Under the pieces are notes generated by a model. That model did no database searches, was not told where the DNA came from, and saw only the letters and a list, made by a program, of their open reading frames with translations. Positions 100 to 56,566 of a DNA stretch of 56,566 nucleotides are shown here, in pieces. This stretch comes from a virus. The stretch is from IMG/VR virus record IMGVR_UViG_3300045988_014023, positions 1 to 56,566 of that record; one strand, given 5' to 3'. The translations under genes and the position numbers were made by a program. Within the stretch, counting starts at the first letter, position 1. Each line of letters starts with the position of its first letter.

Positions 100-1296
100 T
101 CATAATGCTTCGATTAAGTCAAGTTCCTGTCTCTTTTCCTCAATTCCGGTACGATCAAAATAATAATGATCTTTTGTGCAACTAATGTCTGTATGCCCCA
201 TAGTATCAAGAATTGTGGACTCTTTCACTTTTCCGTCAAGAAGAATACTTCCGTATGTCTTTCGGATTTTGTGCGGAGATTTCACTTTCATTCGCAATTC
301 ATGTTCGCAGATATACCGCAAACGTTCACGAAAGTTGTAGGATTTCAAACGCTCTCCGTCTCTCTCGAATAGATATTCCCCGAAGGGATTTCTCTTTCGT
401 ACTTCATCAAGAATCCATTTGTACTTATCCGGCAATATGGCAAATCGCAATCCGGCTTCTGATTTCGGAAAATCTTTGACCTCATAGTGAAAGCCATCAT
501 CATCACGGTAACGAGTCTCTGTAGAATTGATAGCAACCGTGTAGTTTTCAACATCTTTCCGCTTTAATGCCGACAATTCCCCGACACGAACTCCTGTCTT
601 AAACATAAATAGCAATCCAAGGTTCACAATATCCAAGTGATTCCTTAAGTACATCTCCATGCGTTCCTTTTCATCCGGCATATATACTTGGTCTTTTGCC
701 TGCCGAACTACGTGCTTAAATGCTTTTGGCGATATATCCATATCTTTCAGCGTGTATGTAATTGAAAACTTAACATACTTCTTCCGCTTGGCATACTTAA
801 AGATTCCATAAATCAGCGTCCGAAAGTTTGAGAATGCCTTGGAAGTCATGTCGAAATCATGAATGCTGTTTCGTATAAACGTTTCAAGGTCGCATTCGTC
901 TACACTTTTGATTTTCTTATCCTTGATGTCGTCAAAGTATCTCTGAAAGTCCATTAAGTATCTGTCATAGGTTGCCCTGCTGATTTCTTCAAGTTCCAGC
1001 TTTTGTGAAATCCAACGGTTGAAGATTTCCTCTATCGTAGGGTCATCCTCTTTCTCTTTCCAATAATCAATGATTTTCTGCTCGACCGCTTCTCTGCGCT
1101 TTGCCTTGATTTTACGTCTGCCTTTTACTTCATCCGGCAGATATGAGTACCAGTTCTCATCCTTTCCTTGATAGATTTTATAAGGGTTTTTGTTGAGTAA
1201 TTTCTCTCTCTTTTGCATAGTGACTTGTTTCTGCACAAGTGCTATGTCGAGAATACCACTATCAACGGCATATTTCAACAGTTCTTTTTCATCCAA
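100..1296 (-). CDS. int: Tyrosine site-specific integrase
   Basis: 398 aa. C-terminal catalytic signature GVRVGELSAL...HKIRKTYGS...GHTDISCTKDHYY (R, H-x-x-R, H, Y). Adjacent to the tRNA-like core. Confidence 0.9.
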   Translation of the reverse strand: MDEKELLKYAVDSGILDIALVQKQVTMQKREKLLNKNPYKIYQGKDENWYSYLPDEVKGRRKIKAKRREAVEQKIIDYWKEKEDDPTIEEIFNRWISQKLELEEISRATYDRYLMDFQRYFDDIKDKKIKSVDECDLETFIRNSIHDFDMTSKAFSNFRTLIYGIFKYAKRKKYVKFSITYTLKDMDISPKAFKHVVRQAKDQVYMPDEKERMEMYLRNHLDIVNLGLLFMFKTGVRVGELSALKRKDVENYTVAINSTETRYRDDDGFHYEVKDFPKSEAGLRFAILPDKYKWILDEVRKRNPFGEYLFERDGERLKSYNFRERLRYICEHELRMKVKSPHKIRKTYGSILLDGKVKESTILDTMGHTDISCTKDHYYFDRTGIEEKRQELDLIEAL

Positions 1297-1576: not shown

Positions 1577-2285
1577 CTATTTATTTCTCCATATTTCTTC
1601 ATCAAGAATATATTGTCTGATAAATCTATCTGCGTACTGTGGATGTATCATTGACCTTTGCGTTTTAACTGATAGTCCATCGTCATTTACCCTACTTTTT
1701 GCTATTATTTTCGTTTTTACATAATCAATAGTTTCGAATACTAGATTGTTTTTGGGTTTAAAATTCACAAACCAATATTGTGTCGGCTTTTTTATAGTAA
1801 TCTCCATTTTGTGTTCTATCTTTGTCTACCAGGTCAGGCTTTAAGCACCAATACGATGTAAGATAATGCGGTTGATTATACGGATTTTCTATAACTAATC
1901 TTATTTTTCGCCTTATGCAATTTATGACTAATTTATTAAGTAATCCGTAAAATTCATTCAATGCATCGTGCCTTTTTATTGCACTTTCGCATTTCTTTTC
2001 CAAACTCCAATTTCTTTGTGAATAATTATTACCAGAAAACCATAATTGGCTTTGACATTCAAAATAAGTGCAAGGGAAAAATGCAAATATCAAATCATCA
2101 GTACTTATCTTATCAAACAAACTCGGCTCACCTTGATACCCCATATCAATCTCTTTAAAAAGGTCAATAACATAGTCGGTTTCGTTAAATTCATTCTGAA
2201 TATCATAGTCGTAGGCTTCAATTCCATACTTCTTGAAAGCGTTCTTGAATGTTCCTGACTGTTCAAATAAACAATGTACTATCAT
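1577..2285 (-). pseudogene. DNA (cytosine-5-like) methyltransferase-like gene split by a frame change in an A6 tract
   Basis: The 175-aa ORF has LFEQSGTF (motif I-like), FFPCTYFE (PC motif) and IENP (ENV-like), and ends ...GDYYKKADTILVCEF*. The overlapping ORF reads ...IKKPTQYWFVNF. Removing one A from TATAAAAAAGCC (~1789-1794) fuses the two frames. Confidence 0.5.
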
Positions 2286-6371: not shown

Positions 6372-6803
6372 TCACAATACATCGCTTTCCCTCTCCATTT
6401 CTTTCAGCTTGGCTTTGGCTTCCTCTCTGGTAAGGAATACTGTTATTCCAAGTTCTGTTTTCGAGAAGCCTGCAACATTTTTACAAATCCCTTCAAGCAG
6501 TGTCCAATTAAATTGAATAACGTTGCACGGGTAGATGGTGATTGATTCAATCACAAATTTTGATATTCTTTTTCTTTCTGCATTAATTTCCCAAACGATA
6601 TCTCCAACCTTGCACGGCAACCGCAGAAGTAATCCCAGCTCTTCGGCTTGCTCTCTATTTGCAAGTCTTTCTGCAATCTCTTCCAGGGCTTTGTATCTTC
6701 CATCTTTCGCAAGCTGGGTAATGGTAATTCCCTCATCATCCGGTAAATCTGCTAGATGAAATAAAACTTCTCCATTCTCTGCCACATATGTTAATCTCTC
6801 CAT
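6372..6803 (-). CDS. Hypothetical protein
   Basis: Track ORF 6372..6833. Start trimmed to MERLTYV (GTGAGGA RBS), which abuts the upstream stop. Confidence 0.5.
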   Translation of the reverse strand: MERLTYVAENGEVLFHLADLPDDEGITITQLAKDGRYKALEEIAERLANREQAEELGLLLRLPCKVGDIVWEINAERKRISKFVIESITIYPCNVIQFNWTLLEGICKNVAGFSKTELGITVFLTREEAKAKLKEMERESDVL

Positions 6804-6804
6804 G

Positions 6805-7200
6805 CTATTCCTCACTTTCTGGTAACATAGCATATTTATAGCTACTCATTTTACCGTCGTATGTGCTCCATGACGTTTTTCCGTAATCCCATGTATAAAC
6901 CGTTTCATCTTCATATTTTGCAAAATGTTCTTTGCTCCACGCAAAAAGTTCAGAATCTCTGACCAAAATCGGTGTATCGACTGCAACCTTATTCCAATCA
7001 ACAGGCGGCTCAACATACCCCGAATTAAGCCATTCGCGGAAATTATACGTACTACCTTTGCACGAATCTGATTCATAAAAATCGCACTCTTCACATTTAA
7101 TTTCTTCGCAAATTGCAGGCTTTCCATTTTTTAATCCAAACACGGCTGTGTTTGTCGCAAGTTCTATAATCTCATCTCCGTATTTTTCTTTATTTGTCAT
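6805..7200 (-). CDS. Hypothetical protein
   Basis: Track ORF 6805..7239. Start trimmed to MTNKEKYG (GAGG RBS). Confidence 0.5.
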   Translation of the reverse strand: MTNKEKYGDEIIELATNTAVFGLKNGKPAICEEIKCEECDFYESDSCKGSTYNFREWLNSGYVEPPVDWNKVAVDTPILVRDSELFAWSKEHFAKYEDETVYTWDYGKTSWSTYDGKMSSYKYAMLPESEE

Positions 7201-9639: not shown

Positions 9640-10439
9640 CTACAATCACCTCGTTTTTCCGCAATCTGCAACCAATAGTCGGAATCATTTTTCAACCAAT
9701 CAACATATTTTGGAATGTACCGAAAATCCGTATCGTCTGGATTCTTTTCTTGATAGTCACTCAAATATGCTTCTGTGGCTTTGTATAACAGCCGTGCAAT
9801 GTCCGGTTGGTTCTCTTCGATAACTTCTAGCACTTTATCCATCCAAGCTGTTTTAGAGGTACTATACGCTGTTTTCTTGGGGTATATATTAAAAGTCTTT
9901 TTCCATGCATCGTCAAAATCAAAAAAATCTCCGGAATCGGTCGACGGCGAATTTTCTTTTATATTTTCTTTATCTCTATCTTCTTCTTTTTCTTCTTCTT
10001 TATCTGAAACAGCGACGTCAGACGATTTATCGGGCGATTTTTGTTCAATTAGATTTTTCTGTTTCTTTCTGCGATTCTGCTGATATAGCCTGTCACGTTC
10101 CTTTTTCTTCTCATAAGCATCAAGTGTCTGGTGCTTATTCCAATTCGGAATCGTTATCACGCTGTCAACAACTTCAATCATTCCAAACTCTTCAAAGGTC
10201 TTAAGCGCAAGCCTTACCGTGTTTAAATCTCTGCGAAAAATGGTGGCAAGCATTTCATCCGTGAACGGTAATTTGTTGCTCATCATAAACACACCGTTGT
10301 TATTCTGTTTTCCAGCAAGAATGAGAAGTTTGAACCAAATCGTAATGATGCTATCCGCACTCGGCATACTCTCAATCAGCAGAATCTTTTCATCATCAAA
10401 GACATCTGTTGTGATCTTAATCCACTTGACTTCTGCCAT
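9636..10439 (-). CDS. Phage replisome organizer (N-terminal domain) / DnaD-like
   Basis: 267 aa. The N-terminus MAEVKWIKITTDVFDDEKILLIESMPSADSIITIWFKLLILAGKQNNNG matches the replisome-organizer pattern. Sits directly upstream of dnaB. Confidence 0.8.
   Translation of the reverse strand: MAEVKWIKITTDVFDDEKILLIESMPSADSIITIWFKLLILAGKQNNNGVFMMSNKLPFTDEMLATIFRRDLNTVRLALKTFEEFGMIEVVDSVITIPNWNKHQTLDAYEKKKERDRLYQQNRRKKQKNLIEQKSPDKSSDVAVSDKEEEKEEDRDKENIKENSPSTDSGDFFDFDDAWKKTFNIYPKKTAYSTSKTAWMDKVLEVIEENQPDIARLLYKATEAYLSDYQEKNPDDTDFRYIPKYVDWLKNDSDYWLQIAEKRGDCS
10011..10027 (+). repeat. Iteron copy inside the replisome-organizer gene (AGCGACGTCAGACGATT)
   Basis: The 17-mer is identical to 49143-49159. 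A GGGCGATTT near-repeat follows. Confidence 0.6.
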
Positions 10440-11039
10440 TTAATCACTCTCCTCATATGTATTTTCAGAAATCAAAGCCATAAACTTCTCATACTGTTTT
10501 TCAGAAACTTTGTTGCCCTGTTTCTCCGGCTTCAAACGGATTTCAAGGTGCTTTTCAGCTATATGCGATAATTCCTTGGCAAGGCTCTTTTTGCCCTGCT
10601 TAATGCCGTCATAATAGCCTTTTGCTGGTTTAAATTCGTTTATCTTTTCTTTTCCTGCGCCTTGACCGCCAGCCGTTTTGTTGTAACGGCATTGATAACC
10701 TTTCTTTGTATATTCCAAAATCCAATATTGTTCCATTTCATCAAGTTTCTCTCTCGGATAATGGATAAAATCCAATTTCCATCCATACGGATTTTCTTCA
10801 CTATAAAATCCTCTTTTTTTAATCGAAAGATCTATGTGCTGATAACCGGATAAATGTGAAACATTTCTCTCTAAGCAGTCAACGCTCTGCCCAATGTAAA
10901 AGTAAGATATACCGTTTTCATCAGTCCTCGTGTAGAAATAAATTCCGCTCTGATTTTTCATTCTAGGGCAAACACTTAATATCCGTTTCTCGTTGTTCTT
11001 TTTTATTGCATATAGCTGCTTGTAATTTACATTCGGCAT
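10440..11039 (-). CDS. GIY-YIG nuclease-domain protein (homing-endonuclease-like)
   Basis: 199 aa. GIYFYTRTDENGISYFYIGQSVDCLERNVSH fits the GIY...YIG...R motifs. Confidence 0.65.
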   Translation of the reverse strand: MPNVNYKQLYAIKKNNEKRILSVCPRMKNQSGIYFYTRTDENGISYFYIGQSVDCLERNVSHLSGYQHIDLSIKKRGFYSEENPYGWKLDFIHYPREKLDEMEQYWILEYTKKGYQCRYNKTAGGQGAGKEKINEFKPAKGYYDGIKQGKKSLAKELSHIAEKHLEIRLKPEKQGNKVSEKQYEKFMALISENTYEESD

Positions 11040-20253: not shown

Positions 20254-20583
20254 ATGACATTAAAAGAAAGAGTTAAAGAATTGTGCGATGAAAACGGTGT
20301 AAAAAGCTACCAATTAGAGGAGTATTGCGGATTTGCAAAGGGATATTTGAGCAAGCTGGATCATCCAAATGTGGACAAAGTAAATGCAATAGCTGAATAT
20401 TTTGGTGTTTCTCTTGACTATCTCGTAAATGGTAAAGAAGACAGATTGGAAAAATATGCAAATATGTCAGCAAAATTAATGAAGGACGAAGAATTGACCT
20501 GCTCATTAAAGAAATATTTCAACTTATCAGACGCTAAAAAGAAACACGTTATTGAATTAATAAACCTATTAAGTGAGGAATAA
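20254..20583 (+). CDS. CI-like XRE-family repressor (no peptidase domain)
   Basis: 109 aa. LKERVKELCDENGVKSYQLEEYCGFAKGYLSKL...IAEYFGVSLDYLVNG is an HTH_3 pattern. One of very few plus-strand genes, divergent from the early operon. Confidence 0.7.
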   Translation: MTLKERVKELCDENGVKSYQLEEYCGFAKGYLSKLDHPNVDKVNAIAEYFGVSLDYLVNGKEDRLEKYANMSAKLMKDEELTCSLKKYFNLSDAKKKHVIELINLLSEE

Positions 20584-22087: not shown

Positions 22088-23185
22088 TTAACTTACAGTT
22101 ACTGTAAATACAGCGAAATGTCCGGTATATCTTTCCGTTATTCCATTATGGACAAGCAGCAAAATGCTAGGATATTTAAACACCGTAGAAGACCCTGGCA
22201 ATTCGATTTCCGATGCGCTTTCTTGCACTCGGCATTTATTTATTGTTATCGTTTTGTTTCGCAGAGCATCCGATATTGGAGCGGCTACTGACATGCCTCC
22301 AAACCCCATCATAAATGCCCCAGGAATATCATATGTGCCATTTACTCCACGCAAAAAATCATTTAAACTGCCGTTTAAATCACTTAACTGTTTCGCCAGC
22401 GTGCCGTCTATATTCGGGTTAGCCTGCCGCGCGTCCAACGCATATCCGGCAACCGTGGTTGTCTGATTATTCACTACACTTGTTTTCGTGTCCGGTGGTG
22501 TTTGCCATGTGCCATCTTCTCTTAGATATTTACTCGTTCCTGCTGTAGTCGATGGTGCAGGAACAAGACCGGCTTTTGCGCCGGTTCCGGATTTTACAAA
22601 ATTGGAATATGTTGTGTTATTATCAGCATTCCAGTCCATGCACAACCAAAATGTACCATCATAAGTAAATATATGGGTCGCATTATTATAGAAGAAATTT
22701 CCGCTTGCATAAGAAATAGCCGCCTTATTCCCGTTTCGAACATATCCTATAGTTTTCGCCCCGGTGCCATTTACATTAAGTGTAAGGTTCCCGGTTGTTG
22801 GATTTGCTGTGCCCACCGTATCCGTAAATTTAACCGCAATGCTCGTACCGACTTGTAATACAAAGTTTGCCAATGTTGCAACTTTAGCCGCCGTAGCTCG
22901 ACCGGTCGCGCAAGTAGCCAGCGGTTTTTTCAAAACCTCAATTGCTTTTTTGTCGGTTGCGGACATTAGACCGTTAGATGTGGTTGTCGCTGGTGCGCTT
23001 GATCCTGCAGATGGTCCGCTCATCCAATAGTCTTTTGTATCTGCTCCAGGTACTTTCCCTGCCGGAACATTCTTTTTCGCAATGTAAAGCGTGTTGTTAT
23101 GCATTACTGCATCCAACCGTTTGTAAATCAAGGATGCGTCATAGTCATCCTTTGGTACAATTGCCACTCTTCCTGCTATAGCCAT
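22088..23185 (-). CDS. Tail fibre / receptor-binding protein
   Basis: 365 aa, the last large gene of the tail module. T/N/G-rich beta-type sequence. Carries the right inverted repeat in frame (…SDLNGSLND…). Confidence 0.6.
   Translation of the reverse strand: MAIAGRVAIVPKDDYDASLIYKRLDAVMHNNTLYIAKKNVPAGKVPGADTKDYWMSGPSAGSSAPATTTSNGLMSATDKKAIEVLKKPLATCATGRATAAKVATLANFVLQVGTSIAVKFTDTVGTANPTTGNLTLNVNGTGAKTIGYVRNGNKAAISYASGNFFYNNATHIFTYDGTFWLCMDWNADNNTTYSNFVKSGTGAKAGLVPAPSTTAGTSKYLREDGTWQTPPDTKTSVVNNQTTTVAGYALDARQANPNIDGTLAKQLSDLNGSLNDFLRGVNGTYDIPGAFMMGFGGMSVAAPISDALRNKTITINKCRVQESASEIELPGSSTVFKYPSILLLVHNGITERYTGHFAVFTVTVS
22365..22380. repeat. Inverted repeat, right copy (AAACTGCCGTTTAAAT) inside the fibre gene
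   Basis: Perfect 16-bp match to rc(21856-21871). Lies within the dyad ATTTAAA-CTGCCG-TTTAAAT. Confidence 0.75.
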
Positions 23186-36521: not shown

Positions 36522-36848
36522 TTACTTCACATCCTTGCCAAAACGCTTCCATAAATCGGATAATTTCTCCCAGCCAAACATTGCAACAAACGCAACGATA
36601 AAGCCTGCCATAATAGCCGCAAGTATCATATACCACAGTATCGTCATATGAATGTACTGCATATATGCGATAAACGCCGTAACTGTGATACCGATAGATA
36701 AAACGAACACAATTATGTCCGTAGGTACTTTATTGAATATGCTTATATTCTTGATTACCTGTGTAATTACAGATACAAGAAAAGCAATAACTCCGATAAT
36801 TGCTAATATAAGTGTCATGTTTGCAATTAATGTCTGAATAATATCCAT
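36522..36848 (-). CDS. Holin-like membrane protein (3 TM segments)
   Basis: 108 aa with three hydrophobic helices and a charged C-terminus (KLSDLWKRFGKDVK). Confidence 0.45.
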   Translation of the reverse strand: MDIIQTLIANMTLILAIIGVIAFLVSVITQVIKNISIFNKVPTDIIVFVLSIGITVTAFIAYMQYIHMTILWYMILAAIMAGFIVAFVAMFGWEKLSDLWKRFGKDVK

Positions 36849-36851
36849 TAT

Positions 36852-37175
36852 CTACACCTCCTTGTCATCATTAAGTCTTGTCTCTATGCCATCAATTCTG
36901 TGATGCGCCGACTTAACACTTTCTTCAACTTTAATTATCCTACTATCGTGAGAATTAAGCTCTTTCCGCATTTCTGTGACTTCGTTCTTAATCTCCGTTG
37001 TATTGTTGGATATTGCGTCAAGTTTCATATTTATTCGCGTGTTCTCTTTCACACGTTCTTCAAGTTCTACTCTGTCACTTCGTTTATCATTCTTAGAGTT
37101 GAATGATAAACTGAAAAATCCGAAAAAGACGGAAAAAGCAACTGAAATTATGCTTATAATTACTGCTATTGGCAT
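36852..37175 (-). CDS. BhlA/UviB-like holin-type protein (N-terminal TM + coiled coil)
   Basis: 107 aa. MPIAVIISIISVAFSVFFGFFSL followed by a coiled coil. The call rests on architecture only. Confidence 0.35.
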   Translation of the reverse strand: MPIAVIISIISVAFSVFFGFFSLSFNSKNDKRSDRVELEERVKENTRINMKLDAISNNTTEIKNEVTEMRKELNSHDSRIIKVEESVKSAHHRIDGIETRLNDDKEV

Positions 37176-44170: not shown

Positions 44171-44455
44171 TTATTTTATATCCGCAATGCTTTCCACAAA
44201 GCAATTGTAGTAGATATATCTCTTGCCGTTAAAATCAAACTTAACATATCCACCATTGTTTGTATCAATATCAATCTTGCCTTTATATGTTGCAAGTTCT
44301 TTACCATCTGCCGTATATACAGTAATTGTTCTCTGCATACCGCCATTGATATTGCTCTTAAAATCAATTACACTTCTTTCCCATTGTGCGGTACATCCTG
44401 TCATTCCAAAACACAATGTCAGCACTAATACAATTGCTATAATTTTCTTTTTCAT
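44171..44455 (-). CDS. Lipoprotein (DUF5052-like)
   Basis: Start at MKKKIIAIVLVLTLCFGMTGC (lipobox). ...TVYTADGKELATYKGKIDID...GKRYIYYN. Confidence 0.6.
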   Translation of the reverse strand: MKKKIIAIVLVLTLCFGMTGCTAQWERSVIDFKSNINGGMQRTITVYTADGKELATYKGKIDIDTNNGGYVKFDFNGKRYIYYNCFVESIADIK

Positions 44456-44466
44456 AAAATCTCCTT

Positions 44467-44700
44467 TCAATTCATACATAGAACTTTTTCGCAAACCTTA
44501 ATACATTCTTTTCTCTTCTCATCATTGGTGCACTTTCCATCTGCATTGTATCGGCAAGAAGTCAAGTTGCATTTTTTATTTGCATAAGCATTATTCACAT
44601 TATCAATCCATTCACGAAACGGAATATCGTTGATTGTGGCATTGTCTAATACCGTGTCAGCTATCTCCTGTACCATTTTTCTGTATTGAAATTCCATCAA
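44467..44700 (-). CDS. Hypothetical Cys-rich protein
   Basis: 77-aa ORF with several Cys in the C-terminal half. Confidence 0.45.
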   Translation of the reverse strand: MMEFQYRKMVQEIADTVLDNATINDIPFREWIDNVNNAYANKKCNLTSCRYNADGKCTNDEKRKECIKVCEKVLCMN

Positions 44701-45736: not shown

Positions 45737-45805
45737 ACCATCCATAAGTCTCCCATCGACCGGAACTATTGCAGTAGCACCCGACTAAGTGGAGATAAGG
45801 ATAAA

Positions 45806-45893
45806 CGCAGATATTCGGACTCGAACCGAAACACCGTTTCCGGCTACTGACTGTTTAGCAAACAGTTTCCTTGCCAATTAGGATTATATCTGC
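45806..45893 (-). tRNA. tRNA-Ser (anticodon GCU), type II
   Basis: Hand-folded: acceptor GCAGATA/TATCTGC, anticodon arm ACTGT-TTGCTAA-ACAGT, long variable arm, T-arm TTCGG-TTCGAGT-CCGAA. Confidence 0.75.
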
Positions 45894-45971
45894 ACGCGCC
45901 GGGCATGGAAGTTCCCTACCCGAACCATTCCTTGCGCTTCAGAATGGCACGGTTCTACTAACACCGCTCAA

Positions 45972-46043
45972 TGGCTTGTGGCGGTATCGAGCCGCCCTAT
46001 ACAGATTTTCAGTCTGTCGCTAATCCATCTCAGCTAACAAGCC
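45972..46043 (-). tRNA. tRNA-Phe (anticodon GAA)
   Basis: Acceptor GGCTTGT/ACAAGCC, anticodon arm ACAGA-CTGAAAA-TCTGT, T-arm GGCGG-CTCGATA-CCGCC (the T-loop is slightly atypical). Confidence 0.75.
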
Positions 46044-46234
46044 ATGTCGTGTAGTTTCCGTTTTTCCTTGTTCCACGCTACACTAAGTGCAAGGTTCTTT
46101 TAGTCAGCGGTTACCGCCATCTTTTGAATGACAACCGCTCAATCCAGTTACCTGTGCTAAGTTTAACCGGTATATTGATTAGCACCTGCATTTCTGTAAT
46201 AAACACACTAGGGGTGTACTGGCAACATCACCTG

Positions 46235-46305
46235 TGGGGATTACAGGAATCGAACCCGCGACAACCCGGATATAAGCCGTGTCTTCTGCCACTGAATTAA
46301 ACCCC
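46235..46305 (-). tRNA. tRNA-Ile (anticodon UAU) candidate
   Basis: Acceptor GGGGTTT/AATCCCC (one T-T mismatch), anticodon arm CACGG-CTTATAT-CCGGG (one A-G mismatch), T-arm GCGGG-TTCGATT-CCTGT. Confidence 0.55.
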
Positions 46306-46312
46306 AATGCAG

Positions 46313-46384
46313 TGATCGGTACGAGATTTGAACTCGTGTTACCACCGTGAAAGGGTGGTGTCTTGGCCACTTGACTAACCGATC
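46313..46384 (-). tRNA. tRNA-Glu (anticodon UUC)
   Basis: GATCGGT TA GTCAAGTGGCCAAGAC A CCACC-CTTTCAC-GGTGG TAAC ACGAG-TTCAAAT-CTCGT ACCGATC A. Close to the typical Firmicutes tRNA-Glu layout. Confidence 0.85.
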
Positions 46385-46517
46385 AAAGACACGCGGTCGA
46401 TTGTGACACCAATCCACGCCTGCTGTGACGCAATTTAAGTCTTTGCTATTCACATCCAAATAACCTAGGATAATCTCGCAAACCGGTAACGCGGGAATAA
46501 ATGGATGCTTTCGCTCA

Positions 46518-46609
46518 TGGGGAAGAGAGGAATTGAACCTCCAGCGTTTATACCACTTGGGAACTGATTTACAGTCAGCCGCAACACCGCCAATCGTTGC
46601 CGCTTCCCC
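46518..46609 (-). tRNA. tRNA-Tyr (anticodon GUA), type II
   Basis: Acceptor GGGGAAG/CTTCCCC, D-stem GCAA/TTGC, anticodon arm GCTGA-CTGTAAA-TCAGT, ~20-nt variable arm, T-arm GGAGG-TTCAATT-CCTCT. Confidence 0.75.
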
Positions 46610-46836
46610 AGAACCGCCACAAGACGGTTAGCAATATGTTTTACGTGCTATGCGTTACACGATCATGCGCCGTGGGATAGACGCATGATAGAATACCACC
46701 GGACGGTCTCGCACCGTACTTAACAGAATCGTCCTAGTGGCGAAAGGAGGAACCCAAATGCTTGAATCACTCAACCAAGGGTTCAAGTACGTATGGAAAA
46801 CATACGTGGCTACATGGAACGTCAACATGTAACCAA

Positions 46837-46907
46837 TTAGGCTACCGGGATTCGAACCCGGAATGCAGGAATCAAAATCCTGTGTCTTACCGCTTGGCGA
46901 TAGCCCA
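46837..46907 (-). tRNA. tRNA-Gln (anticodon UUG)
   Basis: TGGGCTATCGCCAAGCGGTAAGAC... with anticodon arm CAGGA-TTTTGAT-TCCTG and T-arm CCGGG-TTCGAAT-CCCGG. Resembles Firmicutes tRNA-Gln. Confidence 0.8.
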
Positions 46908-50441: not shown

Positions 50442-50470
50442 ATAATATCATGAGTGCCTTATAATGTCAA
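50442..50470 (-). promoter_or_regulatory. Promoter TTGACA-17-TATTAT with the 13-bp palindrome in its spacer
   Basis: Minus strand: -35 = rc(50465-50470), -10 = rc(50442-50447). Operator copy 1 (50450-50462) fills the spacer. Confidence 0.5.
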
Positions 50471-50496
50471 GTGATATTTTTCAAAAAGTGCCTTAT
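50450..50496 (+). repeat. Two degenerate copies of the palindrome ATAAG-TGC-CTTAT (50450-50462, 50484-50496)
   Basis: ATGAGTGCCTTAT and AAAAGTGCCTTAT. Each differs from the consensus at one base. Confidence 0.7.
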
Positions 50497-50499
50497 ATT

Positions 50500-50697
50500 T
50501 TATTTTAATCTCTCCAACTGCTCTAACTGGATCAACACCGCCTCTTTTATAAAGGCGTTTATACTTTTTCCGCTTACTTTCTTGATCCGTTCTTTTGTCC
50601 CGGATGGCAACAGGCAATTAACACGGTCTACTGTTTTTGTATACTTAGCTACTGCTTGCCGCCTTTGTTCGGTCTGTTTTTCTGTATATTCTGCCAT
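50500..50697 (-). CDS. Ribbon-helix-helix (Arc/CopG-like) DNA-binding protein
   Basis: 65 aa. ...VDRVNCLLPSGTKERIKKVSGKSINAFIKEAVLIQLE fits a beta-strand plus two helices RHH pattern. Confidence 0.5.
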   Translation of the reverse strand: MAEYTEKQTEQRRQAVAKYTKTVDRVNCLLPSGTKERIKKVSGKSINAFIKEAVLIQLEQLERLK

Positions 50698-50731
50698 TTG
50701 TTTTCCTCCCTGCTTTTATATATGTACTTTA

Positions 50732-50760
50732 AATATAGCATAAGTGCCTTATTATAGCAA
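50732..50760 (-). promoter_or_regulatory. Promoter TTGCTA-17-TATATT for the RHH gene with the palindrome in its spacer
   Basis: Minus strand: -35 = rc(50755-50760), -10 = rc(50732-50737). Operator copy 3 (50740-50752) is centred in the spacer. Confidence 0.5.
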
Positions 50761-50894
50761 GGATTATTTTTCTTTCTATATTATAGTAATCCTATAAATG
50801 TTTTATAAATAAGTGCCTTATGTATTATTCACAATTCCATTGATATTATAAGTGCCTTATTTTGTTTATTTCGCATATTGCATAAGTGCCTTAT
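50740..50894 (+). repeat. Four perfect copies of ATAAGTGCCTTAT (50740, 50809, 50848, 50882)
   Basis: Read directly. All copies are in the same orientation (asymmetric centre TGC), within the divergent intergenic region. Confidence 0.85.
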
Positions 50895-50906
50895 ATTTAC
50901 TATAAT
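50878..50906 (+). promoter_or_regulatory. Promoter TTGCAT-17-TATAAT for the plus-strand island; palindrome copy 6 overlaps the -35 and spacer
   Basis: -35 at 50878-50883 and -10 at 50901-50906. Confidence 0.55.
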
Positions 50907-51134: not shown

Positions 51135-51332
51135 ATGAGAAAGACGGGAATGCGTTTTACATGGGAAACAACAAAGAACGGTGACGCGATCAACGAACTG
51201 AAAAAGAACGGAATCGCGTTTGAGTATAACCACTTCGGGGAACTCACAGCCGACTTTTACGGAATCGGCATTTTTGAAAAAGTCGATTTTGAACACGTCC
51301 AAGGCGATGTATTTGAAATCTGCATAGCATAG
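51135..51332 (+). CDS. Hypothetical protein
   Basis: 65-aa ORF with a GGGAGGG RBS. Confidence 0.5.
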   Translation: MRKTGMRFTWETTKNGDAINELKKNGIAFEYNHFGELTADFYGIGIFEKVDFEHVQGDVFEICIA

Positions 51333-51410
51333 CCGAAACGCTCCAAGATCGGAGCGTCAGCCGTGGGATGGTCGCCCGGCTCTGATGATGGCAGACCAGA
51401 AAGGGAAAAT

Positions 51411-51572: not shown

Positions 51573-51657
51573 GTCGAAACCGCCCACGCGGCGGTCTGCA
51601 GGAACTGCCCCACCTGCACCGATGAGACAGGGCGCACAATGAATGGAGGAAATAAAC

Positions 51658-51987
51658 ATGAAAAAGAAAATCTTAGCCATTGTATTAGCTGCAGTTACCC
51701 TTGTAAACCTTGCACCAGCAACAACGGAAGCAAAGGCCGCGCGCACCTACAAAGTGCGCGGAACCGTACGGAATTTTAGTTATACCTATACCTACGAGGA
51801 CGGTGAAAAGCTGACCGGGAAAGGCTTTGACATTTACACGGCAGACGGTAACATCTGGGAAATGTCCGACACGGACACCGACTTGCATTTTAAAGACGGA
51901 CAGAAAGTTATTGTTAAGATCAGCGACAACGGCATGCCAAAGGATAAAACCGATGATCGTATTATATCGGTTAAAAAAGCAAAATAA
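51658..51987 (+). CDS. Secreted small protein (signal peptide)
   Basis: Start at MKKKILAIVLAAVTLVNLAPATTEAKAA (GGAGGA RBS). Confidence 0.55.
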   Translation: MKKKILAIVLAAVTLVNLAPATTEAKAARTYKVRGTVRNFSYTYTYEDGEKLTGKGFDIYTADGNIWEMSDTDTDLHFKDGQKVIVKISDNGMPKDKTDDRIISVKKAK

Positions 51988-52820: not shown

Positions 52821-52842
52821 AAAAACGCTACCCCAGGGGGTA
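52821..52842 (-). terminator. Weak terminator at the end of the orphan module
   Basis: Minus strand UACCC-CCUG-GGGUA followed by GCGUUUUU. Confidence 0.35.
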
Positions 52843-52850
52843 CAAAAAAA

Positions 52851-53009
52851 TTACGAAATATTTTTTGGCGCGCGGAGAAAATTTTCTTTCGTAAAAATTA
52901 AAGACCGCGCCGCATAATCGCTTTTGCTCAACTCTTCTATCAGCTTTTCCCTAGTCATTTCCGGATTCGTCCGGTGAACGTACTGTAAGAGTTCTGAAAT
53001 TTTATCCAT
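52851..53009 (-). CDS. Hypothetical small protein (52 aa)
   Basis: Hand-translated MDKISELLQYVHRTNPEMTREKLIEELSKSDY... TAATG overlap with the upstream gene. Confidence 0.4.
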   Translation of the reverse strand: MDKISELLQYVHRTNPEMTREKLIEELSKSDYAARSLIFTKENFLRAPKNIS

Positions 53010-53344
53010 TATGCAACAACCTCCATAAGTTCAATCAATAGTCTGTCTGCTATTTCAAATACTTCTCTTCCGTATGTAGCCAAAAAGTCTGCTACAATTT
53101 CCTCGGTGCTAATATCCATGTATACATTATACGAAAGACAGAACGCATGGCATAATTCGTGACATAACACACGGTCAAGGAATTTTCCGCGCAGATCATC
53201 CGCAAGATATATCGTTTTCGTGTCTCTGTCGGTCATGCCTACCGTTCTGCTCCCATCGCTTCTCTGTAGCATATCGCTGTAACGCGATACTTTGACCAAA
53301 TTCCACATTTCATTGTTTATTGTGAACAATTTACCACCTCGCAA
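53009..53344 (-). CDS. Small HExxH zinc-metallopeptidase-like protein
   Basis: 111 aa with ...TIYLADDLRGKFLDRVLCHELCHAF.... The start codon is uncertain (TTG in the track). Confidence 0.5.
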   Translation of the reverse strand: MRGGKLFTINNEMWNLVKVSRYSDMLQRSDGSRTVGMTDRDTKTIYLADDLRGKFLDRVLCHELCHAFCLSYNVYMDISTEEIVADFLATYGREVFEIADRLLIELMEVVA

Positions 53345-53370
53345 ACAAAGAGGGCAAAATGCCCTCTCTA

Positions 53371-54051
53371 TTACATTTTCGTAACAAGCGTAGTCAGCTT
53401 AGTCTTGGTCAACTGTTTCTCTTCCGGGGACATGCCGGAAAACAGTTCGGTCACATCTTCCGAAAGAGATTTCATGTACTTTTCGAGTTCTTTCATCTTT
53501 GCGTCCTTATCTTCCGGTGAATTTCCGTTATGCATTTCCTTTGTCTCCATGTAACTTCTCCGGCTCATACCGGCTCTGCCCTCTCTTGCATCGTGAGTAC
53601 CGGTACTCATGCCGTTATTTCCGCTCATAGGCTCTGAATAATACATCTTTCCAATACTCATTCGGTCAAGGTCTCTCATTCGGTCGTATTCCGGCATTCT
53701 CTCCCATTCGTGGTAATCTTCCGGCATCTGATGATAATATGGCGGTTCTATATATCCTCTGCGTGTTCCGCGCCCCTTCGGTGCGAATCTGCCATTTGAG
53801 TACCGGTACTCATTGTAGTATCTTCTTCCCGGATAATCCCCAAATTCTTCCTCCATGCGCATGATTTCTTCGTTTTCAGACTTTTTCATTGCTTCAACAA
53901 TGTTATAGTCCTTGTCAAAGCACACGATGTTCTTTGCAATCTCCGTCCAATCCTTGAGATCATCAAGGTTTTGACCCTCGAAATTCTCAATTCCGATGCC
54001 GTCAACGTGGGCTTTCACGCAATCCATAATCTGTTTCGCAAACTTATGCAT
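53371..54051 (-). CDS. Hypothetical Tyr/Arg/Met/Glu-rich protein
   Basis: 226 aa. The central segment YPGRRYYNEYRYSNGRFAPKGRGTRRGYIEPPYYHQMPEDYHEWERMPEYDRMRDLDRM is low-complexity. Confidence 0.55.
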   Translation of the reverse strand: MHKFAKQIMDCVKAHVDGIGIENFEGQNLDDLKDWTEIAKNIVCFDKDYNIVEAMKKSENEEIMRMEEEFGDYPGRRYYNEYRYSNGRFAPKGRGTRRGYIEPPYYHQMPEDYHEWERMPEYDRMRDLDRMSIGKMYYSEPMSGNNGMSTGTHDAREGRAGMSRRSYMETKEMHNGNSPEDKDAKMKELEKYMKSLSEDVTELFSGMSPEEKQLTKTKLTTLVTKM

Positions 54052-54055
54052 AATA

Positions 54056-54475
54056 TCAAGCCTCCCTTACCGCAATCAAATTACTGTTCTGCACCTCGAT
54101 AGCCTGTGTAGATGTATTCTGCACCGCTACTGTACTGCAACAGCCACAAGGTACATCAACGTATGCCTGAGCCGAAACGTTAAATAAATTTTGTACTGCT
54201 GCCGGAGTAACTATCATTCGTGTTGACTGTAAAGGTTCTCCATCCACTGCAATAGCAAGCGAAATCTCTTCAACTGTACCGCCTGTCGGTATCTGAATGT
54301 TTCCACTATAAGATACTAAAAATCTAGCCTTGCACTGATTTGTGATACCTCTTAACTTGATAATTCCACTTCCTTGTCTGTGTACGATACATTTTGTTCC
54401 GTTTACTGCTGTTTCTGTGAATGCAACATCTTCTCCAGCAGCAACGGTTTGTAATGCAATTCCTGTTACTTCCAT
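54056..54475 (-). CDS. All-beta protein resembling BclA-C/DUF3992 (TNF/C1q-like jelly-roll) domains
   Basis: Start at MEVTGIAL (GAGAGG RBS). The pattern ...GIIKLRGITNQCKARFLVSYSGNIQIP...ISLAIAVDGEPL...VPCGCCSTVAVQN...IEVQNSNLIAV is recalled from exosporium/appendage proteins. Confidence 0.35.
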   Translation of the reverse strand: MEVTGIALQTVAAGEDVAFTETAVNGTKCIVHRQGSGIIKLRGITNQCKARFLVSYSGNIQIPTGGTVEEISLAIAVDGEPLQSTRMIVTPAAVQNLFNVSAQAYVDVPCGCCSTVAVQNTSTQAIEVQNSNLIAVREA

Positions 54476-54598
54476 TATTTTTACCTCTCTTTCATAAAAA
54501 TAAGGGCAAACATTACAGTCTGCCCTTTGATTCAAAAGTAATACTGCATAGCAGACATGATCGAGTTAAACTCAATTAAGATACTCAATTATTTAGTT

Positions 54599-55360
54599 TT
54601 AGCAGCCACATCCTGTGTTGCATCCACATCCATATGCATAAGCATTTGGGTTAGGTACGACATATGCCGGGATAGCAGACGGATTTACTGCATTGATAAT
54701 CTGCTGTGTCTGAGCCGCCATCTGAGTTGTAAGCAATGCGCTCTGGCGATCCTGTGAAGCCGCTCTGCGAAGGTCGCTATTTTCTGCCTGTAAGCTAGAA
54801 ATCTTCTCATTGCAGAGATAATCAAGAATAGCGCGTGTTCCTGCGTTCTGACTGTCGATAATGTCTCTCGTGTTGCTGTTCATGGTGTTCTGCAAAGCGC
54901 AAGTGTTAGTTGCCATGTTGTAGTTTACGCCCTGAATAGCTTCTCTCGTTTCACAGCAGCAGTTAGCGATCTGTGCCTGTAATGCATTTGTATTCTGCAT
55001 ATTAGCGACTGTATCAGCGTTGATAGCCTGCTGAATGCCGAAACCTGTTTGTAAAATGTTTGTGCTGATTCCGTTCATGCCGTTTTGTACTGCATAGAAT
55101 CCGTCACAAAGACCATTTGAAATGCCATCAAGCTTTGACACAACCGCTTGGTTGTCGAATCCGCGCTGAATTTCGCTTCCGACACCACCATTCATTCCGT
55201 TTCCTCCGAATCCGTTACCGAATCCACCCCATCCAAAGATGGCAAAGATAACGATAATGAACCATAACCATGAGCCTTCTGCGCCCCATCCGTTGTTATT
55301 TCCGTTTCCGTCAATGTTTGCGACAAGCGGAACAGATGCACAATTACCTGTGTTAAACAT
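54599..55360 (-). CDS. Gly/Asn/Gln-rich membrane protein with CCC and C-terminal GCGCNTGCGC motifs
   Basis: Start at MFNTGNCAS (GGAGG RBS). One TM (WLWFIIVIFAIFGW) flanked by GNG repeats, then GLCDGFYA...NCCCETREA...YGCGCNTGCGC. Confidence 0.6.
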   Translation of the reverse strand: MFNTGNCASVPLVANIDGNGNNNGWGAEGSWLWFIIVIFAIFGWGGFGNGFGGNGMNGGVGSEIQRGFDNQAVVSKLDGISNGLCDGFYAVQNGMNGISTNILQTGFGIQQAINADTVANMQNTNALQAQIANCCCETREAIQGVNYNMATNTCALQNTMNSNTRDIIDSQNAGTRAILDYLCNEKISSLQAENSDLRRAASQDRQSALLTTQMAAQTQQIINAVNPSAIPAYVVPNPNAYAYGCGCNTGCGC

Positions 55361-55408
55361 AGAATTTACCTCCATAATTCATTTTTATATAATCTTGCAA
55401 GATTAGTA

Positions 55409-55636
55409 TCACATTCCTAATTGGCTTTTAAACGACTCAAAAGCCTTATCTGCGTCAATTCCCTTTTCTTTGCACAAATTCCTAGCCATCTGCTCGATGC
55501 CCTTGGAATCTCCCTTTTGTGCCATATGCATAGCGTTTCTAGCCATAGGGTTGCTCATTACGCTGTTATTCCCCATCATTTGTTGTAAAAACTGCTGTGG
55601 GTTTCTCATACCCTGTAACATCTGCATAGGATTCAT
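55409..55636 (-). CDS. Met/Gln-rich small protein
   Basis: 75 aa with 12 Met counted by eye (MNPMQMLQGMRNPQQFLQQMMGNN...). Confidence 0.5.
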   Translation of the reverse strand: MNPMQMLQGMRNPQQFLQQMMGNNSVMSNPMARNAMHMAQKGDSKGIEQMARNLCKEKGIDADKAFESFKSQLGM

Positions 55637-56112
55637 TAAGACTCACTCTCCTTTTGTGTTCGTGAAGATTTTCTTTGCGTTTGCGAAGATAACTTATCTT
55701 CCAACTCTTCCATCTTTCCAAACAAACAATCTAATTTGTCAGTAATAGCCTTTGTCGCATCATCAGACAGCCCTATTTCAATTCTTTTATCATCAATCGA
55801 AGAATCTGCCATCTGCTCATTAAAAGGCTTGTAAACGGTCTTTCTGATTGTTCCATTGGCATCCCATTGTTTTGCAACGATTGCGCTCATGTCCTGCATT
55901 GGGAAAAACGCAACGCTTCCATCCATAGGCACATCATTCGCCATGATCGCTGATTCCGACTGCACTACTTTTCCTTGGATTCCAAGAAATTGAGGTTGCA
56001 TCTGCGGAATCTGCGGCTCTGGCTGTTGAAACCTCTGCATTGGGTTGTACTGATATGCGGCATAGCTTGGGTTTTGGTTAAATGCCATATTCTGATTTTG
56101 CATCTGATACAT
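55636..56112 (-). CDS. Protein with a Q/N-rich (prion-like composition) N-terminus
   Basis: 158 aa. The first 46 residues contain 13 Q and 5 N by my count. GGAGGAAGAG RBS. Confidence 0.55.
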   Translation of the reverse strand: MYQMQNQNMAFNQNPSYAAYQYNPMQRFQQPEPQIPQMQPQFLGIQGKVVQSESAIMANDVPMDGSVAFFPMQDMSAIVAKQWDANGTIRKTVYKPFNEQMADSSIDDKRIEIGLSDDATKAITDKLDCLFGKMEELEDKLSSQTQRKSSRTQKESES

Positions 56113-56230
56113 TCTCTTCCTCCAATACTTCCTTGATTGCGTGAATCATTGCTGACTGATACACAAGCGGAACCTTCGACACATCTTCTCTCGTTAAGAT
56201 TTTTTCAAGAATTTCATCTGTAAATAACAT
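56078..56230 (-). CDS. Hypothetical small protein (50 aa), first gene of the orphan module
   Basis: Hand-translated MLFTDEILEKILTREDVSKVPLVYQSAMIHAIKEVLEEE... with a GGAGGG RBS. Confidence 0.4.
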   Translation of the reverse strand: MLFTDEILEKILTREDVSKVPLVYQSAMIHAIKEVLEEENVSDAKSEYGI

Positions 56231-56307
56231 TCCGCATCCCTCCTATGCTTATATTTTTGCATAAAAAAATACGGTTCTTCCGCAAAAAATAAGCAGAAAA
56301 ACCGCAT

Positions 56308-56331
56308 AAAAAAAGAACGCCCAAAGCGTTC
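56308..56331 (-). terminator. Rho-independent terminator between the att region and the orphan module
   Basis: Minus strand GAACGC-TTTGG-GCGTTC followed by TTTTTTT. Confidence 0.65.
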
Positions 56332-56399
56332 CAATTCTACCATTTACAGAAAAGAATCTAAAGCACTTGCGCAGACTCCTTTCTTTTGTGTTCAGTTTT

Positions 56400-56419
56400 T
56401 TGAGTACCATTTTGAGTAC
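56400..56419 (+). repeat. Two TTGAGTAC(C) repeats (56400-56407, 56412-56419); candidate integrase arm-type sites
   Basis: Same core as at 75-82 and 85-92. Lies ~50 bp from the tRNA-like core on the opposite side. Confidence 0.4.
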
Positions 56420-56467
56420 CAATTTTTTTAAGACGCCGCAAACACAGTGTTTATGCGACTTTTAAAA

Positions 56468-56566
56468 CAGTCCGTACGGGAATCGAACCCTAAAGTAATT
56501 GTCTTGAAATGGCTTAAAATAGCCATTCTTTCAATTTTTCTTTGAGTACCTTTGAGTACTAGGGAC
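56468..56566. repeat. Right copy of the exact 99-bp terminal direct repeat
   Basis: Identical to 1-99. Confidence 0.95.

Follow-up and report, generated by a model that had tools for sequence, protein, structure and literature searches.

The window analysed here is the whole 56,566-nucleotide stretch of IMG/VR virus record IMGVR_UViG_3300045988_014023 (positions 1 to 56,566), the complete genome of a temperate phage of siphophage type, with nearly all transcription from the minus strand. Next to one of its attachment (att) repeats lies a module of eight minus-strand genes, here called g1 to g8 (Table 1). It is well supported by the comparisons below that these genes represent one copy of an accessory cassette which is self-contained and moves horizontally among gut Caudoviricetes, with a core consisting of g2, g3, g4, a β-sandwich partner and g6.

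Gene content of the cassette

A first-pass annotation of this DNA, made from the letters alone, had noted eight tightly packed minus-strand open reading frames (ORFs), and all eight are present. g1 and g2 overlap by 35 nt, g2/g3 and g7/g8 share 1 nt each, and the other intergenic gaps are 4–33 nt, the exception being a g4–g5 spacer of 123 nt. Every one of the eight ORFs is intact in about 20 close relatives (viral contigs), and the pooled ratio of nonsynonymous to synonymous polymorphism (pN/pS) in these relatives is 0.03–0.15 for each gene, the tiny g1 and g8 included. They are therefore real genes under strong purifying selection.

Direct reading of the translations also bears out the compositions and motifs given in that annotation, namely 13 Gln and 5 Asn in the first 46 residues of g2, 12 Met in g3, the motifs GLCDGFYA and NCCCETREA and the C-terminal YGCGCNTGCGC of g4, CGCC in g5 and HELCH in g7. 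Among the eight proteins only g4 has a hydrophobic segment, and no signal peptide is apparent in g1–g3 or g5–g8. Scans against Pfam, PHROGs, NCBIfam and PADLOC assigned none of the eight to a functional family; with the defence-system models of PADLOC the sole match was a marginal one between g4 and the ZorA coiled-coil tail (E 0.007, 13 bits). None resembles a known virion or replication protein in sequence, in keeping with the original impression that the module is neither structural nor replicative.

Table 1 Features of the cassette and of the genome that carries it.
Feature	Position	Strand	Size	Remarks
g1	56078-56230	-	50 aa	Acidic, helical; lineage-specific, only in window-type cassettes; pN/pS 0.05
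g2 (family F2)	55636-56112	-	158 aa	Core gene; pN/pS 0.03
g3 (family F3)	55409-55636	-	75 aa	Core gene, always directly upstream of g4; pN/pS 0.07
g4 (family F4, phrog_16490)	54599-55375	-	258 aa	Signature gene; 253 aa from gene-caller Met
g5 (family F5, phrog_20016)	54056-54475	-	139 aa	Mechanical ORF reaches 54535
g6 (family F6)	53371-54051	-	226 aa	
g7 (phrog_1233)	53009-53344	-	111 aa	HELCH, zincin-like; lineage-specific; pN/pS 0.13
g8	52851-53009	-	52 aa	Coupled translationally to g7; lineage-specific; pN/pS 0.15
Promoter match, sigma-70-like	56334-56362	-		TTTAGA-17-TAGAAT with upstream TG; consensus match only
Upstream hairpin, intrinsic-terminator-like	56314-56332	-		Strong; 8-bp stem and T7, 5′ of g1
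Second hairpin	56270-56284	-		Weaker; followed by T-run
Cassette leader motif TTTATGCAAAAATATAAG	56248-56265	-		-10-like TATAAG just before ribosome-binding site
Hairpin in g4–g5 spacer	54502-54527	-		10-bp stem; strongest terminator-like hairpin of the region
Hairpin 3′ of g8	52829-52842	-		Weak, terminator-like; 5-bp stem
att repeat	56468-56566		99 nt	Identical to positions 1-99
Tyrosine integrase	100-1296			
Early genes (Ant, SSB, SbcC-like, RecT, DnaD-like, DnaB, methylase)	~19800 down to 100	-		Run toward integrase
XRE-type repressor	20254-20583	+		Genetic switch
Terminase, head and tail genes	~44000 down to 22000	-		
Six tRNA genes (Ser-GCT, Phe, Ile-TAT, Glu, Tyr, Gln)	45805-46907	-		Upstream of packaging genes

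Conservation and distribution of the cassette

The first-pass annotation had suggested a survey of the neighbourhoods in which the CCCET/GCGC protein family, to which g4 belongs, is found. This was carried out by tblastn of the eight proteins against 83 loci, and by iterative hidden Markov model searches on the ORFs around g4 homologues in 29 diverse loci. A conserved order emerges at varied insertion sites: F2, F3, F4, a β-rich protein of 110–180 aa, and a further helical or disordered protein (F6 in the window). The β-rich slot is occupied by F5 in 16 loci and by an unrelated Cys-rich protein, here called F5′, in 13. g1, g7 and g8 are confined to the window-type lineage, a Roseburia-type one, among whose members are Dulem virus 39 and locus L084. 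The conserved unit is thus g2–g6, and not the eight genes that had originally been grouped together, of which the other three are lineage-specific additions.

The word orphan, applied to the module at first, has also had to be abandoned. g4 matches phrog_16490 at 7e-60 and g5 matches phrog_20016 at 1e-65, both being PHROG families of unknown function; an exhaustive representative search puts the g4 family at 1,640 clusters at 50% identity, with members of about 200–300 aa; and the gene order is conserved in diverse gut phages. g4 has more than 8,000 matches in a large protein collection, in which some single variants occur on 86–281 contigs. No recurrent domain fusion was found in a Pfam scan of 66 g4 relatives. 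The cassette is carried by thousands of gut phages, virulent ones included, and its signature is F4 together with an exchangeable β-sandwich partner. Its families are catalogued in PHROGs but uncharacterised, and we place the cassette outside the kinds of system known so far, because the only defining features of known systems found in it are the fold class of g5 and the bare HExxH of g7.

The cassettes of the window-type lineage are mosaic: the identity of g5 to that of the window is either about 50% or 87–99%, independently of that of g4 (73–99%) and g6 (41–99%), and several relatives have 0.7–1.7 kb of extra DNA between g3 and g4, g5 and g6, or g6 and g7. Contigs with the cassette from metagenome-assembled genomes (MAGs) are binned to Lachnospiraceae, Oscillospiraceae and other Clostridia, and some to Bacteroidales, Collinsella, Atopobium and others, the binning of phage contigs being unreliable.

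The position of the cassette varies widely. It follows the integrase gene (int) and the phage attachment site (attP) in the window, Dulem virus 39 and L084. In Butyrivibrio phage Ceridwen (L002) it stands after a GH73 endolysin and a predicted terminator, and in Bajarodcaudo virus 5 (L001) after a holin and a peptidase-type lysin. In a lineage of 44–46 kb phages (L054, MT835739) it lies between the gene for a minor head protein (phrog_581) and the scaffold and major capsid genes. In Clostridium perfringens phage CPD1 (L112) the g4 homologue and its neighbours come downstream of the lysis genes, from which KilA and about a dozen small genes separate them, and before recombinase, ThyX and SSB. 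A reduced form, F4 with F5′, occurs within the structural block of the crAss-like phage cr52_1 (L109), and after the recombination and replication genes of Bacteroides uniformis phage C3_41T2LP. A tblastn search for homologues in the phiCP39O/phiCP26F group, for which virion proteomics has been published, gave only CPD1-type relatives. Both lifestyles are represented: MT835739 is temperate, with a serine integrase and a Sie-like gene at its lysin–int junction, and Ceridwen has no integrase and has been seen to grow only lytically (PMC7372960).

Several other features were noticed in these phages. In L054 it is preceded (6611-7140) by a 101-aa protein with a transmembrane segment and a coiled coil and by a 68-aa Sigma70_r4-like helix-turn-helix protein (Pfam E 0.007, sub-threshold), and a tRNA gene (10393-10460) stands between it and the scaffold gene. 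Ceridwen has a RAGATH-18 RNA match at 1612-1684 (+), at Rfam gathering level (75.4 bits). In cr52_1 the reduced cassette has a diversity-generating retroelement (178-2709) immediately upstream, consisting of a reverse transcriptase and an Mtd-like tail protein.

The attachment site

The module had been placed next to the att site, opposite int, and this is what is found. Positions 1-99, which precede the integrase gene, recur at 56468-56566 and hold the tRNA 3′-end-like sequence GGTTCGATTCCC, so that the order on the circular map is int, attP, cassette. Read on the minus strand, the repeat shows a tRNA 3′-end-like GGTTCGATTCCCGTACGGACTG together with GGTACTCAAA repeats, which may be arm-type integrase sites. 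A near-identical cassette is present in a 2.06-Mb MAG contig of Roseburia faecis (L114), immediately following a host gene for tRNA-Thr(CGT), which is read in the direction of g1, with host ABC-transporter genes beyond the tRNA gene. The insertion boundary in the window is the junction of attP with the late region, so that in the prophage form the cassette comes to lie beside a host tRNA gene. A literature search on Roseburia faecis prophages turned up nothing relevant.

L114 uses another integration site (tRNA-Thr CGT) than the window, and its att core and arm-type repeats differ from those of the window (GTAATCAAA as against GGTACTCAAA, comparing L114 4784-5130 with window 56231-56566). Because the cassette leader is nevertheless identical, the integration module has been swapped independently of the adjoining cassette.

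Terminators and leader

The module had been described as bracketed by terminators. The strong upstream one is confirmed; the downstream one is weak, with a stem of only 5 bp, and the strongest hairpin, in the g4–g5 spacer, had been overlooked. The region contains 10 terminator-like sites where 5.8 ± 2.8 are expected, an enrichment that is not significant. The upstream hairpin is kept 100% in L114 despite the differing att region, and probably insulates the cassette from read-through out of the tRNA or int. Strong hairpins are found 36–103 nt 5′ of F2 in at least eight diverse loci, and the F2 of L054 is separated from the preceding gene by a terminator hairpin of 12 bp with a run of T7. The hairpin in the g4–g5 spacer is a possible internal attenuator, and the spacer itself is a hot spot for insertion and recombination in relatives.

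From the upstream terminator hairpin to the g1 start codon, the window and L114 are 100% identical. The leader motif of this stretch has a single occurrence in the window, and one per locus in the window-type and L054-type lineages alike, always directly 5′ of the cassette; the whole stretch between hairpin and start codon is alike in the two lineages (TTTTTTTATGCAAAAATATAAGCATAGGAGG in the window, TTTTTTTATGTAAAAATAGTCATAG... in L054). A general late-promoter motif was considered and rejected, given the single copy in the window. The leader is a signal that travels with the cassette, also into the otherwise unrelated phages of L054 type. It may be a promoter without a -35 element, and hence activator-dependent. 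A transcript from the sigma-70-like match farther upstream would start within the 5′ arm of the abutting upstream hairpin.

With its own terminator and leader the cassette looks like an insulated transcription unit of the moron type. In common with phage morons, such as those of HK97 and lambda and the Sie genes between lysin and int, it has flanking terminators and its own leader, it is mosaic and mobile, and it occupies module boundaries that vary among relatives (here the att end). As regards a promoter of its own, the matches are at consensus level only (56362-56334, and the -10-like TATAAG of the conserved leader). It differs from morons in having five to eight co-ordinated genes in place of one or two, and in being found also in virulent phages and in a head cluster. 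The earlier assignment to a moron slot holds for an insulated unit at the att end, but virulent Ceridwen and the head-cluster contexts speak against a purely lysogenic-conversion role.

The signature protein g4

An alignment of 66 diverse relatives of g4 shows an N-terminal tail of about 29 residues, which is acidic (net charge about -2, with a mean of about 0.45 Lys/Arg). It is followed by a short hydrophobic core of about 11–14 residues with the consensus WWIIILFALIF, set between Gly/Asn-rich stretches. The CCC motif is near-invariant, and at least 90% of these 66 sequences have it. The linker PxPAYxVPNP leads to a tail rich in Gly, Cys, Asn and Tyr, with several Cys in the last 14 residues. 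The AlphaFold2 model, although poor (pLDDT 50), has a transmembrane-type helix, a 34-residue helix and a helix of about 100 residues (residues 124-225). A helix of this last length would be stable only in an oligomeric coiled coil.

The i-spanin Rz, the T4 holin T and phi29 p16.7 have a comparable architecture, with a hydrophobic N-terminal anchor, a long helix or coiled coil, conserved Cys and a length of about 150–250 aa. g4 differs from Rz and T in that the opposite topology is predicted for it, its N-terminal tail being acidic and not basic, and no match in sequence or profile was found. The CCC motif and the Gly/Cys tail belong to g4 alone among these proteins, and the g4 family is commonest in monoderm hosts.

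The likeness to bitopic lysis proteins, together with the fact that the cassette adjoins lysis genes in some phages, raises the question of a lysis or egress module, in which g4 would be a large holin- or i-spanin-like protein with a single transmembrane domain (compare T4 holin T and Rz), its partners would be of antiholin type, and the protease would have a lytic or processing role. The cassette directly follows holin and endolysin in Bajarodcaudo virus 5 and endolysin in Ceridwen, the g4 homologue of CPD1 is downstream of the lysis genes, a neighbour in cr52_1 is annotated as LysB/FtsL-like, and no endolysin is recognised in the window. Adjacency to an endolysin is, however, limited to Bajarodcaudo virus 5 and Ceridwen, as several kb of small genes intervene in CPD1, and the endolysin of MT835739 is a normal one, encoded well away from the cassette. 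g4 matched no holin or spanin family in Pfam, the PHROG lysis families or NCBIfam, and adjoins no lysin in the window. g7 has neither a cell-wall-binding domain nor a known lysin domain, and spanins are unneeded in the monoderm Lachnospiraceae, in which the g4 family is most abundant. Finally, the window already has two holin-like genes elsewhere (36522-37175), which also weakens the narrower idea that the cassette is the missing lysis module. We consider a lysis function improbable, and in this genome it is not required.

The two holin-like genes, at 36522-36848 and 36852-37175 (-), are located between the major capsid and head-tail connector genes and not after the tail genes. One encodes three transmembrane segments, and the other an N-terminal transmembrane segment followed by a coiled coil (BhlA/XhlA-like); Dulem virus 39 carries holin annotations at the corresponding location. 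The stretch from the tail-fibre gene (22088-23185) to the repressor contains only small acidic ORFs. The search for an endolysin covered the whole window, where tblastn with five lysins from related loci gave nothing.

The exchangeable partner g5

The AlphaFold2 model of g5, based on a 50-sequence alignment, is all-β with nine strands (pLDDT 76, pTM 0.72). A Foldseek comparison had been proposed in the first-pass annotation: the model of g4 gave no match, and that of g5 found C1q/TNF jelly rolls as most of its top PDB matches (Cbln, EDA-A1, ExsFA, the ExsF/F-Anchor complex, Pgp3-C and C1q), with E values of 5e-3 to 5e-2 and Foldseek probabilities of 0.9–1.0. The highest TM-score, 0.52, was with ExsFA of the Bacillus cereus exosporium. 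Among the predicted viral structures of BFVD it matched giant-virus collagen/C1q proteins, a phage 'BclA protein' with a TM-score of 0.76 and, at E 2e-8, siphophage proteins that are uncharacterised. The model suggests that g5 is a stand-alone C1q/TNF-like jelly roll of BclA-C/ExsF type at the level of fold. Membership at the level of sequence is a different matter, with no Pfam match at E ≤ 1 and no PDB profile match at E ≤ 10. The resemblance to BclA-C that had been noticed from the sequence thus survives as a resemblance of fold, but the accompanying suggestion of DUF3992/Ena does not, as there is no Pfam match and no Cys before residue 29, and so no N-terminal Cys connector.

g5 shares with the BclA C-terminal domain, ExsFA (BxpB) and ExsF the compact all-β jelly roll, and is like ExsFA a stand-alone domain of about 140 residues encoded beside Cys-rich proteins. 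It differs in having only 8–14% identity in the PDB alignments, no exosporium-targeting N-terminus, and no stalk, collagen-like or other, on its 139-aa chain; it is also encoded by phages, including phages of non-sporulating hosts. A literature search on ExsFA or C1q in phages yielded nothing relevant. A GCC motif is conserved in g5. The alternative partner F5′ has an N-terminal CxxxCxxC, with no Pfam match (11 F5′ proteins scanned) and no PDB match. The possibility that F5 and F5′ are distant homologues was rejected, the hhalign probability being 0.1%. g5 is an exchangeable partner, present as alleles of about 50% or about 95% identity in otherwise similar cassettes and replaced by F5′ elsewhere.

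The first-pass annotation had proposed a spore-coat or exosporium-type layer. In that case the cassette would be a lysogenic-conversion moron, expressed from the prophage and building or modifying a layer of this kind or the host surface. Its place at the att-proximal end of the prophage, between terminators, would suit such a role. ExsFA/ExsF is the nearest PDB structure to g5 by TM-score, the compositions, rich in Cys, Tyr/Arg, Gln and Gly, are reminiscent of coat proteins, and many hosts (Lachnospiraceae, Oscillospiraceae, C. perfringens) are in spore-forming groups. Butyrivibrio, the host of Ceridwen, is however not known to sporulate, and Ceridwen is seen only in lytic growth. The reduced form is found in Bacteroides phage and crAss-like phages, again with non-sporulating hosts; the cassette of the temperate MT835739 is in the head cluster, and the true moron slot of that phage holds a different gene; and in CPD1 the surroundings are early genes. 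In addition, the partners of g4 have no signal peptide, the predicted topology favours a cytoplasmic bulk, and there is no match to Pfam BclA_C, DUF3992 or a coat protein. Of all the readings this one is the least compatible with the distribution of the cassette, and we regard it as highly improbable.

The main rival is a virion-associated fibre, decoration or ejection complex attached to capsid or tail. Here g4 would form a trimeric shaft and g5 a head that binds receptors or glycans, comparable to BclA, C1q, reovirus sigma1 and the heads of phage receptor-binding proteins; the hydrophobic segment would be buried, or inserted in the target membrane on infection, and g3 would be a chaperone. 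The C1q/TNF fold is typical of fibre tips and receptor-binding heads, and the structural matches include the BppU/A/L tripod of Tuc2009 (5e7t_G) besides the giant-virus collagen/C1q proteins and the phage 'BclA protein'. Swapping of g5 alleles and families resembles the swapping of receptor-binding heads. The cassette also occurs in virulent phages, and is found in the head cluster in L054 and MT835739 and in the structural block in cr52_1; the depositors' labels for F4 are 'spike protein/glycoprotein' (cr52_1) and 'outer capsid protein/viral fiber' (C3_41T2LP). However, where the cassette lies in the head cluster it is still separated from the genes upstream by the strong 12-bp terminator. 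Its position is highly variable, with early-type surroundings in CPD1, and a membrane-type segment accompanied by low-complexity proteins rich in Gln, Asn, Met, Arg and Tyr would be atypical of virion parts. There is no similarity in sequence or profile to any structural family. Such a complex is in our judgement unlikely, while deserving to be taken seriously.

The remaining proteins

g2 consists of an N-terminal low-complexity region rich in Gln, Asn, Pro and Tyr, a small conserved β-rich domain, a C-terminal helix and a basic tail; 19 relatives scanned against Pfam gave no match, nor was there one in PDB. g3 is helical and rich in Met and Gln. g6 has a helical N-domain, a disordered centre rich in Arg, Tyr, Met and Glu, and a helical C-terminus, and the same N-domain recurs in the protein at position 6 of L054-type cassettes (hhalign probability 86%, E 5e-6). 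PDB profile searches with g4, g5, g2, g3, F5′, g7 and F0 (a further family, described below) returned only coiled-coil and low-complexity matches at chance level, among them a match to the Cpl-7 'lysozyme' (E 3e-4) that was discounted.

g7 had been described as metallopeptidase-like. The HExxH is there (HELCH, residues 62-66), but all the Pfam scores are below cutoff: 21.7 bits against 27 for DUF6782, 20.7 against 25.6 for SprT-like, and 16.9 against 22 for M78. A helix-like context for the HExxH, and these weak matches, are what g7 shares with the zincins of mobile elements (ImmA/IrrE M78, SprT-like, DUF6782 and MPTase-PolyVal); it differs from them in falling below every gathering threshold and in having no cognate XRE repressor adjacent. 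No PDB relative of g7 was found. C3_41T2LP encodes a PolyVal metallopeptidase five genes downstream of its g4 homologue, which recalls the position of g7. An assignment of g7 to MPTase-PolyVal was dropped, as the pairwise comparison with that protein is not significant (E 5.3).

In many other lineages, though not in the window, F2 is directly preceded on its 5′ side by F0, a family of 125–148 aa with an invariant Asp-Cys...His...Asp and a C-terminal FDSWDSGxEIPxYYW (L054 6223-6606; L002 6984-7361; also L091, L092, L097, L098 and L108). F0 has no PDB relative, and is predicted from its motifs to be a papain- or transglutaminase-like thiol enzyme.

The compositions of these proteins invite the idea of a membrane-anchored organiser of replication or assembly, with g4 tethering a condensate-like or cross-linked scaffold made of prion-like g2 (Gln/Asn/Tyr), g3 (Met/Gln) and g6 (Arg/Tyr), in the manner of phi29 p16.7/p1 or of viral factories. 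The low-complexity 'sticker' compositions of g2, g3 and g6 are kept across families, virulent and temperate phages alike carry the cassette, and a Cys-His-Asp enzyme of papain- or transglutaminase-like type stands beside Gln-rich proteins in many lineages. phi29 p16.7, with its membrane anchor and coiled coil, provides a parallel to g4. The basis of the idea is nevertheless purely compositional; no nucleic-acid-binding or replication domain is present, and an accessory and variably placed cassette would be unexpected for a core replication organiser. We therefore think this very improbable.

Proposed mechanism

On the basis of these observations we tentatively favour an assembly acting at the envelope of the infected cell, made up of a membrane-held Cys-rich coiled coil (g4), an exchangeable partner (g5) and low-complexity adaptors; this is the reading that we prefer, and it may well prove wrong. 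g4 would oligomerise through its helix of about 100 residues and be held at the cytoplasmic membrane by the Gly-flanked hydrophobic segment. Its bulk would face the cytoplasm, because the acidic N-terminal tail without Lys/Arg (by the positive-inside rule) and the lack of signal peptides in the partners both point that way. The Cys-rich tail and the CCC motif could join g5, as a putative trimeric C1q/TNF-like cap, by metal or disulfide chemistry, with g5 as the exchangeable specificity element. Like the Met-rich domains known to bind transmembrane segments, g3 may shield or escort the hydrophobic part of g4; g2 and g6 would be low-complexity adaptors or scaffolds; and the protease (g7 here, F0 elsewhere) may process or regulate the complex. 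The complex would work at the cell envelope, during infection or lysogeny, in conflict between phages or between phage and host, with no spore layer involved, and its likeliest role would be the exclusion of incoming phage or the control of entry or egress. Because the partner is exchangeable and the cassette mosaic, as would be expected of a specificity element in an arms race, we favour a role in envelope conflict with modest confidence.

Several points weigh against this proposal. There is no homology to any characterised protein in support of such a role, and PADLOC offers only the marginal ZorA match. The model of g4 is of poor quality, with a pLDDT of 50, and has no match in Foldseek, and its hydrophobic core of some 11–14 residues may not span a membrane. 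We infer the oligomeric state of g4, its membrane topology and its contact with g5. No co-variation is seen between the type of partner (F5 or F5′) and the Cys pattern at the C-terminus of F4, a result that is neutral to negative for a contact between tail and partner. Furthermore, known exclusion systems are, to our knowledge, single genes and not sets of five to eight, and MT835739 already has a Sie-like gene elsewhere.

A more far-reaching version, which we regard as distinctly unlikely, is that gut phages of several bacterial phyla share a portable kit for a membrane-anchored assembly made of coat-like materials: a CCC coiled coil, an ExsF/BclA-like trimer, and prion-like Gln/Asn/Tyr, Met/Gln and Arg/Tyr low-complexity proteins, with cross-links by Cys or metal and perhaps also Gln-Lys bonds formed by the Cys-His-Asp enzyme. 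If so, viruses would be building a structure of a new kind, subcellular or on the virion surface, whose specificity head can be exchanged.

g4 abounds in gut metagenomes from humans and animals, and yet the proteins of the cassette have no characterised relative. A conserved five-gene block that moves with its own leader among temperate, virulent and crAss-like phages must be of general value in the gut. Assigning a role to it, whether exclusion, adhesion, egress or assembly, would explain a sizeable piece of the 'dark matter' of the gut virome, and could reveal a new viral use of C1q/TNF-type domains and Cys-rich coiled coils. Since an isolated Butyrivibrio phage (Ceridwen) and Roseburia lysogens carry the cassette, the proposals made here are directly testable.

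Other features of the window

A type II hammerhead ribozyme is present at 51331-51400 (+) (RF02276, 64.8 bits, E 3e-11, Rfam gathering level), in a gene-poor stretch of the opposite strand between the cassette and the block containing HNH, MazG, the tRNA genes and terminase. Three to four direct repeats with AGTGCCTTAT are found at 50445-50900, next to small ORFs of both strands, and resemble an operator or iteron array. Two further genes encode proteins with export signals: a predicted 107-aa lipoprotein (lipobox ...FGMTGC) at 44171-44494 (-), between the terminase gene and the tRNA cluster, and a 114-aa signal-peptide protein on the opposite strand at 51643-51987 (+). Both are candidates for true lysogenic-conversion or exclusion genes.

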